The position numbers and the translations under genes were made by a program. The notes under the pieces are model-generated. The model was not told the origin of the DNA and searched no databases. It saw only the letters and a list, made by a program, of their open reading frames with translations. From Saccostrea echinata (Eukaryota), in contig NW_026889758.1 of the NCBI RefSeq assembly GCF_033153115.1, positions 53,816,001-53,880,000 on the forward strand: DNA of 64,000 nt. The letters are read 5' to 3'. Shown piece by piece: positions 7,489 through 11,721 of this stretch (the first letter of the stretch is position 1; each line of letters starts with the position of its first letter).

Positions 7489-8364
7489 ATGCGGTCGATT
7501 TCTAGACTTTTTACATCAATCTGTATTTATTATCTGTTTTGCTTCCAAATGGAATTATTTCCATGTCAAGGCAAGTTTTTTTTTCTAGTTACATGTGATA
7601 TTATATTTTAATACAGTATTGTATGTTCTTTTAGAAACATAGAGCATATCATTGAGATGGTAAAGTAATTAAAGTTCACAATGGATGTTTAATTATAGCT
7701 CTGTCAAATGAAACAAAATTATACATTAAATAAATTCATTCAAGTGTGGATATGACCGAGAACTTGTATCCGTTAAATAGCTCCTTGTTATTTTCTAGGT
7801 ACCTCTGCTAACCACCATCGTGTGAAACGAAAAGTCGAATCATATTTTGAGAAAAAGCATATTGTTGCCTTACAAAATTCGACGAGAATAAATGTTCCAA
7901 CGTTAAGGCACCACTTACCGGAAAACCTTTTCATGGAAAAGAACAGGACAAAGCACACAGTAATCATTGTTCGTGTACTTCGCACACAAAATCGAGGAAC
8001 TAGAAGAATGGTTTTCATAGAAAAACTAAATAAAGTAACTTCCGCAAAACTGAAAAATAACAAATGTACAATGAGGGAATATAACCCTAGAGGAAGACAG
8101 AACACTTGTTCGAATTCCAGAAACATCGAATATTATCACTGTACAGTTTTTATGGATGAAGTTGAAGAAGGGATAAGTATGGTTGAGTTTAATATCCGGA
8201 ATCATAATGACTGCAGATTTTCCGATAAAGGATCGTTTACTGTTGGTGTTAGAGTTGACAAGACGAGGACGGCGGTCCAAGAAGGAGCTGAATGGTTTTT
8301 TGTCGATCATTTGCAAAGGTCAATGTTAATTGGTGGAAACGGCTGTCAAACGCATCAACACTGA
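7489..8364 (+). CDS. Uncharacterised putatively secreted protein, paralog A (215 aa, 2 exons, GC-AG intron)
   Basis: Exon 1 7489-7570 (MRSISRLFTSICIYYLFCFQMELFPCQ, hydrophobic leader), donor CAAG|gcaagt. Exon 2 7799-8364 follows ttttctag, joining in phase 1 to give GTSANHHRVKR-KVESYF...CQTHQH. Colinear similarity to paralog B. Confidence 0.82.
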
Positions 8365-9512
8365 TATTTATTATATAGTTAAAAAACATATTATAATAAT
8401 AAATATTATAAACAAAATTATGAGCGACATACGACAGTATACAGAATAGATCCATTATTTTAACTGACTTAGTTTCCAGTTTGGACCTTCTCTATCATAT
8501 ATGTTATTATTGAAATGTTTAATTATTACTATTCAAGGTCGGGTGCATATTTGAATGTTTGTTTCTTTGCTCACAAATGAAGTATACGTACTTAGTTAAA
8601 AGAAATATCTAAAGATAACCAAAAGTGATCAAACTCATAAATCCAGTAAAAAATACCAATTATGAATAGGACAAAAATGCGGACCCAGGAATAATGCAAG
8701 GGAGGATGGCACTTAATATCAATCACACAATCATGATATTGAAGTTCCAACATGTTCATTTCAAACTGATTGGTTTTATTTTAGTTTATATCAAGGGGTA
8801 CTCGGCTCTTTTCTATTTCAAATCAAATGAGGAAATCCTTCTAAACTGACCCAAATATACACGTTAATAATAACAAAGTGGCGAGGAACGGATTTGATAT
8901 CTCCATCATACTTGTACAAAACCGGGCTGTTTATATTTTCAAGATCACGTAAATTTGGTTTTTTTATAAAACAATTAACAGGTGTCTGTTCTCAAGATGA
9001 GGAGATATGAGACAGATGAGGCTCACAAGTATTCTCAAAATTTGAAAGACAGGCGCTTATTGTTGTTTAATTTGATTTTCATTTTTTTTTTTATTTAATT
9101 CAATTTAATTTAATTCAATTTACTTTTATATGAGATCGGGCACCTGAAAATTCATTAATACTTTAACTATCCAATTTAATTTGGTACACAGATTAACTAA
9201 ATATACGTATGGTTTTTTTTTTTAGAAAGGAATACCATTATGAGGAAGTATACTGTAAACTTACTGTAAATCACTTTTTTTATTCACGGTAACTATTTTT
9301 GCGTAATTACGCGAGACAATTTTACTTTCGCGTATATAAGCATTATCAATTCATAAGTTATACAGAACAATGACCGAAATTCGTTAAAAAAAATCGCTAT
9401 AAATATCAAATAACAATATCGCAAAAATAAGGTGTCGCTAAAATTGTTAAACAGTATTATTTTAGCGGTCTATATCAAATTTTATTGTCTTTCGGACTAC
9501 TTCCACCAATTT

Positions 9513-10248
9513 TATAAAGGGAGATGGGTGAACAAGGCGTGCAGAATGCCTATAGCTTCAGATATATATAAAAATCATATTCATTTTGTGAATTTTGTAT
9601 TTAAAGTTAAGTTCTCACTATTGAAATTTATGAAATTATGATAAACAAAACTTTTCTGAGGAAAATTTACTCGGCAAAAATTTTTGTGGTATTCGTGGGG
9701 TTGGAACCCTAGAAATAAAAATACTGAGTATCATTTTTCTTTGAGACTAACACGCTTATCACTATGCTATACTACCCCTGATGAATAGTGGCATTTAAAT
9801 CATGTTTGTGATATGACCCTTAACTATAAATGGACTACAAGTATTTCTCAGCAAGATGCGAATGTTGTGTCATAAAGGTGTATTTTAAAGGTAATTTTAA
9901 ATTTTTAGATATAAAAAAAGATTTAAAGATATAGGCTCTATGTTTTTTTTTAACCAAAATTGTATATTTTTACGCAAACTTTGAGGATACACTTTCAAAA
10001 AAAAAAAAAAATGGAGCGAAGACCCACTTGTGTTACAGTATGAGAAAATGATCCTTTTTGCCCTCTTTAGTGTGTGTATGCTATTTTATAGGCAAATATT
10101 CTCAATTTTTGTGAGATTTTTGCAAAATCTGGGGATTTCGCATAAAATATACTTAAATGTTAAATGAAATAACAGAGAAAATTTTGTTATAATTGATATT
10201 TACTTCACCATGTTCGTCGAACTATAGGCATTTCGCTAGCCTTCTTAA
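9513..10248. mobile_element. Non-autonomous DNA transposon with degenerate terminal inverted repeats
   Basis: Left aaggcgtgcagaatgcctatagcttc is approximately the reverse complement of right gaactataggcatttcgctagcctt. AT-rich TAAA/TTAA flanks. Confidence 0.5.
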
Positions 10249-10599
10249 AACGAATATGTATACGTATTTATGTACGTTTACAGTAACGATTACCACAGTT
10301 TGCATATTATTTAAATATTGAACATCTTTGACATTAATATTTATCGTTAAATGGTATCTTGGTCCACCGGTTTTCACCTGTGAATTTTCCTGTATCTATA
10401 AATTATGTCAGGGAAAATATGGTAAGAACATTTCTAAATACATGTAAATGTTTTTTTTAACTGCACAAAACATATTTCCTCCTTCAAAAGAGGAGATAGT
10501 TAATACATATTTTTATATATACATATATACTGGAAGTGTTGAAATCAAAGAACAGATTAAAAAACAACACTTAGTGTTGTCTTTCAATAAAAATATAAA

Positions 10600-11721
10600 A
10601 TGCTGCGTCTTCAAGTCGAAGCTTTAATATTTACCTACTTCTTTCAATCTTTATTTATGCACAAAGGTGAGTAGTATTTTTTATTAAATGGGAAAAAAAC
10701 CTTTTTGAAACATTTTTACTATATGAAATATAATATGAATCTTCTTGTTGAAAACATTGACACGCAAAATCGCAACTTAAACAAATTCTTACTTATAAAT
10801 GTTGCAGAGTTGATTTTTTTCCTCAACTGTCCACTTTTTATAAATGAATTCAACGTCCAACCTGTATACCGTAACTTTCTTTCCAAATTTGAATTTAAAA
10901 ACTGCATTGTATTTTATATTGAACTGCACACTCTATAGCTGCAATAATGTTGCCCTCTCCGATTTTTTTTTTTTTTGAAAGGGGGGGGGGATTCGGAGGA
11001 TCTCCTGAAAATATCAGATTTAAAAAAAATCGGAGAGGGCTACATTATTGCAGCTACACACTTTAGTTTGTGAGTTGTGATAATTTGCATTACCAGGTTC
11101 TTCCTAAATTCTATTTACATCTTCTTTCATTTAGGTTTCTCATCTTTACACCATAGAGAGAAGCGAGAAATTAATACTAATTTTGAAAACAGGCATATAG
11201 TAGCTTTTACAGATACAAAAGAAATTAAATATGGCAAGCTTATAGGTTCAGTAGAAAAGTATATTGAATGGGAAGAAAACAGGAGGAAACACACACTGAT
11301 CATTGCCAAAGTAGAGGGCACAGATCGCAGGAGCGCACGAAAATCCGATGTGACAAGAAAATTGAATTTGGTTGTGTCCCAAAAGTTACTGCAAGACAAT
11401 GAATGCCAACAAGTGCCCTATAGACCCTATGGAAGTTCAAATCAAGCAACACCTGGTCAAGGAAGTGGAACGCCGAAAAAAACATGTCCAAACCCTACAT
11501 CTCAAAAATATTTTCACTGCAGTGTACTACTAAATGAAATAGAAAGCCGTATAATTATGGCCGAGTTCGACATTAAGAACAGTGCAATTTGTGAATATTC
11601 GGAAAATGGGAATATTACTGTGGGTGTAAAAGTCGATAATAGTGTACAAACTAAATCGTTTTCCGTAGATCATTTGAAGGAGTCACGTTTGTTCCCTGAA
11701 AAAAGGACTTGCCAAACATAA
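10600..11721 (+). CDS. Uncharacterised putatively secreted protein, paralog B (217 aa, 2 exons)
   Basis: Exon 1 10600-10666 (MLRLQVEALIFTYFFQSLFMHK), donor AAG|gtgagt. Exon 2 11135-11721 follows cttctttcatttag in phase 1, giving GFSSLHHREKR-EINTNFENRHIVAF...RTCQT. Same intron phase, RxKR site and 5-Cys pattern as paralog A. Confidence 0.85.
10936..11056. mobile_element. ~120 bp hairpin MITE in the intron of paralog B
   Basis: Near-perfect ~34-bp inverted repeats tagctgcaataatgttgccctctccgatttttt / aaaaaaatcggagagggctacattattgcagcta. A second copy lies at 43986-44063. Confidence 0.8.

Follow-up and report, generated by a model that had tools for sequence, protein, structure and literature searches.

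An old tandem pair of furin-matured, predicted secreted RNase A-like proteins in the oyster Saccostrea echinata

The window discussed here is a 64,000-nucleotide (nt) stretch of the Saccostrea echinata genome (assembly GCF_033153115.1, contig NW_026889758.1, positions 53,816,001 to 53,880,000, forward strand). It carries two neighboring genes, referred to as A and B, which form a real and old tandem pair. They belong to a multigene family of oysters whose RNase A-like proteins are predicted to be secreted and matured by furin. The leader, the furin-type site, and the conserved residues were read from the sequence, the RNase A fold comes from modeling, and the steps of the mechanism are inferred.

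The A and B genes

Both genes lie on the same strand and are built from a hydrophobic leader exon, a phase-1 intron, and a second exon [Table 1]. The coordinates, the near-equal product lengths of 215 (A) and 217 (B) residues for the joined exons, the HH-R-x-K-R motif, the shared sequence blocks, and the five aligned cysteines were described in an earlier note on this DNA, and all were recovered here. What the note overlooked is that the donor of the A intron is GC, in the consensus context AAG/GCAAGT.

The NCBI model LOC133182891 (P0001, S. echinata) is identical to protein A from Met21 onward and spans the same splice junction, and by beginning at Met21 it loses the signal peptide. The A orthologue in S. 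cucullata (P0002) retains a full leader, in which 15 of the first 28 residues are identical to A and the residue at the Met21 position is Val; judging from this comparison, Met1 is the likelier start. No database model covering exon 1 of gene B was found. An extra leader exon for B, seen by eye at ~10048-10091, was dropped because its phase does not match that of B exon 2. The B intron harbors an inverted repeat (35 nt, 97% complementary, arms 51 nt apart, positions 10936-11056) that looks like a small miniature inverted-repeat transposable element.

Table 1. Features of the A/B pair and of neighboring genes in the window (aa, amino acids; pI, isoelectric point).
Feature	Position	Strand	Remarks
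Gene A exon 1	7489-7570	+	Signal peptide, 27 codons + 1 nt; maximal 9-residue hydropathy 2.3
Gene A intron	7571-7798	+	228 nt, phase 1, GC-AG
Gene A exon 2	7799-8364	+	Short propeptide, furin site, entire mature domain
Gene A furin-type site R-V-K-R	7819-7830	+	Read from sequence
Gene A mature domain	7831-8361	+	177 aa, pI 9.7
Gene A His10	7858-7860	+	Predicted general base, RNase A His12 equivalent
Gene A Arg39-x-Lys41-His42-Thr43	7945-7959	+	Counterpart of K-X-X-N-T in CKXXNTF; mapping inferred from motif and spacing
Gene A His160	8308-8310	+	Predicted general acid, RNase A His119 equivalent
Gene A candidate poly(A) signal	8398-8403	+	
Gene B exon 1	10600-10666	+	Weaker signal peptide, 22 codons + 1 nt; maximal hydropathy 1.6
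Gene B intron	10667-11134	+	468 nt, phase 1, GT-AG
Gene B exon 2	11135-11721	+	Propeptide, furin site, mature domain
Gene B furin site R-E-K-R	11155-11166	+	
Gene B mature domain	11167-11718	+	184 aa, pI 8.9
Gene B His10	11194-11196	+	
Gene B Arg39	11281-11283	+	
Gene B Thr43	11293-11295	+	
Gene B His169	11671-11673	+	
Pyruvate carboxylase gene	13952-25800	-	Converges on the A/B pair, which lies 3′ of it
TAF6-like gene	31723-39783	+	
Ankyrin-repeat gene	51778-63226	+	

An old duplication

The A and B proteins share 79 of 209 residues in BLASTP (38%, E 3e-41), and their mature domains give a Smith-Waterman score of 279 against a maximum of 63 among 1000 shuffles. Over 168 codons the proportion of synonymous differences (pS) is 0.74, which is near saturation, while the nonsynonymous proportion (pN) is 0.39, and 33 of the 65 identical residues are encoded by different codons. 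The rough ratio of nonsynonymous to synonymous change (dN/dS) of ~0.2 has an unreliable denominator but fits purifying selection. As the earlier note proposed, these sequence comparisons support A and B as paralogues that duplicated long ago and have since been under selection, here read as purifying. When the window was translated in six frames and searched with a profile, no third copy was revealed.

Counterparts of both genes exist in S. cucullata. The counterpart of B is the C-terminal half of P0027 (LOC134246209; 71% identical), a 382-aa NCBI gene model without signal peptide in which an A-like half is joined to a B-like one. Since S. cucullata has an A orthologue as well as this A-like/B-like model, the tandem pair is older than the split between the two species, and a tree of 27 rows agrees [support 95/92 for the A group, 100/99 for the B group, and 96/94 for A+B]. 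The fusion in P0027 is likelier an annotation artifact. In the window, too, a phase-1 splice within the last Cys codon of A (8344-8346) to position 11135 would keep the reading frame of B exon 2 and give a polyprotein of two domains separated by a furin site; the donor is weak.

Members of the family

The earlier note regarded the pair as orphans, a status that has to be given up, as a multigene family exists. The only whole-library search with a hidden Markov model used a two-sequence profile and may have missed more distant invertebrate relatives. It returned 25 matches, of which 21 are family members and four (P0022-P0025, E 9e-5 to 4e-4) are unrelated cadherin/PKD/Ig repeat proteins, whose matches are short and which were dropped. 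Two further searches brought the set to 44 proteins, fragments included; five carry a taxon, all oysters (S. echinata, S. cucullata, and Magallana gigas), and 39 carry none. The family alignment (A5) comprises A, B, and 35 of the 44 proteins (37 rows), leaving out P0001 (= A), the fused P0027, and seven fragments. Residues are numbered according to mature protein A.

Apart from the A orthologue, members are 25-39% identical to A. The congeneric orthologues of S. echinata and S. cucullata are only 71-80% identical, a figure not calibrated against other genes, and most members have a pI >8.5. Secretion, as claimed earlier, is supported by a hydropathy test in which a 9-residue mean of at least 1.6 was taken as a leader and ten members with truncated leaders were excluded: of the 12 full-length members that have a furin-type site, 11 reach this value, and B is at the threshold. 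The first His lies exactly 10 residues past the site, R-x-[KR]-R, in all 12 full-length members with leader. One long-branched clade (P0011, P0039, and P0041-P0045) lacks the furin site and has mostly Lys at position 39.

The earlier note had recognized no known family, and Pfam likewise gave none: searches with A and B, the 25 profile-search matches, and 18 alignment members returned, for family members, no more than noise below threshold. In NCBIfam, 37 members pointed to no consistent family, the best match, CT795 (4/37 rows, E 2e-4), being treated as chance. Sequence searches of the PDB with family members gave nothing apart from eS7, which aligned to the propeptide region (E 0.3-2). In the ESM Atlas, query B returned no usable match. 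With P0029 as query, the best feature match was a mostly mollusc cluster of 187-aa proteins (90 members, score 0.78), and a 152-aa chordate cluster (108 members) scored 0.76. These clusters are possible wider relatives and serve as leads only; structure rows derived from the Atlas model of P0029, which is poor (predicted template modeling score 0.23), were disregarded.

Conserved residues

Twenty columns are conserved in at least 90% of the rows, among them Phe6, His10, His42, Thr43, four Cys, His160, Leu161, and Ser164. Only three His columns are conserved, i.e., His10 (30/30 rows), His42, and His160 (35/36 rows). Position 39 is Arg in 26, Lys in eight, and Ile in one of 35 rows (Arg in A and B), position 41 is Lys in 27/35, and position 43 is Thr or Ser in 35/35, which gives the family motif [RK]-x-[KL]-H-[TS]-[FLVY] at 39-44 with no Cys ahead. 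Cys128 and Ser164 are taken as the counterparts of Cys95 and Ser123 of RNase A.

A and B have five Cys each and one clade has four. The second, Cys93, is kept in 32/37 rows and replaced by Tyr in the other five, among them the M. gigas protein, so the family tolerates an even set of four Cys. From the alignment, Cys93 is probably the unpaired one. This finding weakens the suggestion, derived earlier from the odd Cys count, of a disulfide-linked dimer. Prediction of an A/A homodimer (score 0.00) left the partner's own fold uncertain and did not use the alignment, and it is evidence neither way.

Predicted RNase A-like fold and active-site register

Structure prediction followed by fold search models the mature domain as an RNase A fold, with a match that starts at mature residue 1-2 and spans nearly the entire RNase chain (103/112 and 111/124). 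Entries of the EndoU/BECR fold gave lower scores and shorter alignments than RNase A; that no EndoU entries appeared in the fold lists excludes nothing. On the basis of this modeling, it is highly probable that the mature domains of A and B adopt an RNase A-like fold. The likeness to the RNase A motif had been noticed from the sequence before the fold search results.

The register was derived from the first and last aligned residues of the fold alignments, extrapolated without gaps. His10 and His160 land on His12 and His119 in 6/6 pancreatic-RNase rows. In the human angiogenin rows they fall together on His13 and His114, catalytic numbers confirmed by structure entry titles, in 19/32, the others being off by 1-2 at one end. 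The extrapolated positions 15/129 in EDN and 15/123 in RNase 7 match the catalytic His of these enzymes. Two of the three conserved His columns in the family thus land on the RNase A catalytic pair, and the modeled case for His10/His160 as counterparts of His12/His119 is strong but indirect. Moreover, the distances from His10 to Arg39 (29 residues) and to Thr43 (33) in A and B equal those from His12 to Lys41 and Thr45 in RNase A; across the family, the distance to position 39 is 24-29 in 29/30 rows. Published work on RNase A places Phe8, His12, His119, and Phe120 around the active site (PMC7297114) and includes Lys41 in the signature CKXXNTF (PMC3845642; PMC2443152).

Proposed function and mechanism

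These data suggest that A and B are probably secreted ribonucleases of RNase A type and, as predicted, likely active. The signal peptide would direct the protein to the secretory route, where a furin-like convertase would cleave after R-x-K-R and leave a mature N-terminus nine residues ahead of His10, at the start of the RNase A fold. The position of the first His 10 residues past the site, together with a fold match beginning at mature residue 1-2, suggests that the furin cut makes the start of the RNase domain; that the propeptide keeps the enzyme silent, as a zymogen switch, is speculation. On single-stranded RNA, His10 in the first helix would act as general base and His160 in the last strand as general acid. 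Arg39 (Lys in some relatives) would stabilize the phosphate, as Lys41 does in RNase A, with the nearby Lys41 of mature A as an alternative for the transition state, and Thr43, Leu161, and Ser164 may form a pyrimidine pocket. Four of the five Cys would form two intrachain disulfides, with Cys93 dispensable.

What weighs against an active enzyme is the Arg at the position of RNase A Lys41 in A, B, and most other rows (26/35), given that the K41R variant of bovine RNase A is reported to retain 0.1% activity, a 1000-fold loss (PMC2443152). An Arg has, on the other hand, been proposed for a Lys41-type role in the Yersinia kristensenii toxin CdiA-CT (PMC5435912), and Lys occupies position 39 in 8/35 rows. 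The same substitution favors proteins that have the RNase A fold but little or no catalytic activity, as with the non-canonical vertebrate RNases 9-13 or the weakly active angiogenin, and that serve as cationic factors binding membranes, RNA, or receptors (antimicrobial, growth, or gamete factors). The pI >8.5 of most members points the same way, and some vertebrate RNase functions are described as independent of catalysis (PMC7297114). However, at least 90% of the rows retain both His, Phe6, Thr/Ser43, and Ser164 in a family as divergent as noted above, and we consider this alternative unlikely.

A generic helix-plus-curved-sheet (BECR-like) resemblance, with another function such as metal binding or hydrolysis through His10, His42, and His160, is improbable, as the match covers nearly the full RNase chain, two of the three His columns occupy catalytic positions, and His42 sits at the Asn of CKXXNTF. 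The reading of the earlier note, a dimeric, disulfide-linked protein that is secreted as a ligand or shell-matrix component and has no known fold, could draw on the five Cys of A and B, the retention of Cys93 in 32/37 rows, and the furin processing that is common among ligands (a covalent dimer is also compatible with an RNase, bovine seminal RNase being one), but it is very improbable in view of the modeled RNase A fold with enzyme-like conservation including both catalytic His positions, the loss of Cys93 in an entire clade, and a sequence with neither cystine-knot-like spacing nor acidic or low-complexity matrix composition.

If the ribonucleases are active, an extracellular or mucosal role in host defense is slightly favored, given the cationic charge of most members, the expansion of the family, and its fast evolution [pI 9.7 and 8.9 for A and B; 71-80% congeneric identity], together with the analogy to vertebrate RNases (PMC5964141). 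Digestion of dietary RNA is the main alternative.

Origin and significance

A shared ancestry with vertebrate RNase A is plausible. Whether A and B are true homologues, i.e., an active protostome branch with an animal-type His/basic/His site, is an even call, the alternatives being convergence or independent derivation from a bacterial toxin with the RNase A fold. A peptide-pattern scan of GTDB genomes, sensitive to close relatives only, revealed no prokaryotic relative; tblastn against plasmids and phages and Foldseek on viral models, both of limited sensitivity, gave none either. Among the best literature matches, mostly titles and abstract openings with few subscription journals, no mollusc RNase A-like protein was found.

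RNase A, in textbooks a vertebrate-specific enzyme, has long been thought nearly confined to that group; the oyster proteins bear directly on its origin and suggest that the family may be much older. If they are true homologues, the enzyme predates the protostome-deuterostome split or entered molluscs separately, and an intron-containing multigene family with an animal-type C-terminal His would place the origin at least in the bilaterian ancestor or imply a second acquisition. Invertebrate RNase A would then have gone unrecognized through fast sequence change, and the oyster branch would add an N-terminus matured under furin control, possibly as a zymogen switch, and perhaps a hitherto unseen arm of bivalve antimicrobial or antiviral defense. 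The family offers a new profile and structure for searching other invertebrates, which makes the question of origin testable, and for aquaculture it provides candidates for secreted RNases with immune or digestive roles in farmed species.

Genomic neighborhood

The context of the pair is that of an ordinary animal chromosome [Table 1]. The pyruvate carboxylase gene contains a tandem repeat at ~16770-17130, apparently derived from the end of one exon. At 3-206, the minus strand carries an exon-like frame for which Pfam gives no match. Degenerate tandem arrays of ~130-nt units occur at ~3600-4400 (seen by eye) and ~6050-6850; they resemble the satellite-like repeats common in bivalves.

Comparison with known RNase systems

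With the vertebrate RNase A superfamily (pancreatic RNase 1, angiogenin/RNase 5, amphinase, onconase, and EDN; Pfam RnaseA), whose enzymes cleave RNA pyrimidine-specifically and without metal by way of a 2',3'-cyclic phosphate, the oyster proteins share an N-terminal secretion signal, judged by hydropathy, the modeled alpha+beta RNase A fold, and the two catalytic His positions. They differ in having Arg at the Lys41 position, as placed by motif and spacing, in having five (or four) Cys and 177-184 aa rather than 6-8 Cys (3-4 disulfides) and ~130 aa, and in a phase-1 intron after the signal peptide followed by a single-exon mature domain, whereas the vertebrate coding region is intronless. In addition, a short propeptide with a furin site precedes the oyster domain, while signal peptidase makes the start of the vertebrate one. 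The signature CKXXNTF, as given in PMC3845642, is replaced by R-x-K-H-T with no preceding Cys, and the Pfam and PDB sequence searches detect no similarity. As signature, Lys41, Cys number, size, intron, and sequence profile all deviate, the proteins are not filed as canonical members of the superfamily, but their predicted mode of action is that of a member.

EndoU and BECR RNases (RelE/ParE, barnase-like) have different catalytic sets; EndoU is described as using two N-proximal His and a different strand order (PMC7297114). Another animal outside the vertebrates with a protein of RNase A type is the sea urchin Mesocentrotus franciscanus, whose homologue is reported as a single, sequence-detected deuterostome transcript (GHJZ01096130; PMC7297114). 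The oyster proteins, in contrast, are encoded by intron-bearing genomic genes of a multigene protostome family and are detectable by structure only. Finally, the fold occurs in bacterial toxins, i.e., CdiA-CT of Yersinia kristensenii (5e3e) and Klebsiella pneumoniae 342 (6cp9) and Pseudomonas Ribocin. The Y. kristensenii toxin is described (PMC7297114; PMC5435912) as having paired N-proximal His, Thr276/Tyr278 instead of a C-terminal catalytic His, no Cys, and a toxin-immunity context. The oyster proteins have one His in the mature N-terminal region, a conserved His160 near the C-terminus, conserved Cys, and a signal peptide, and their genes are spliced animal genes; because of the C-terminal His their design is closer to that of the animal enzymes than to the Y. 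kristensenii toxin.
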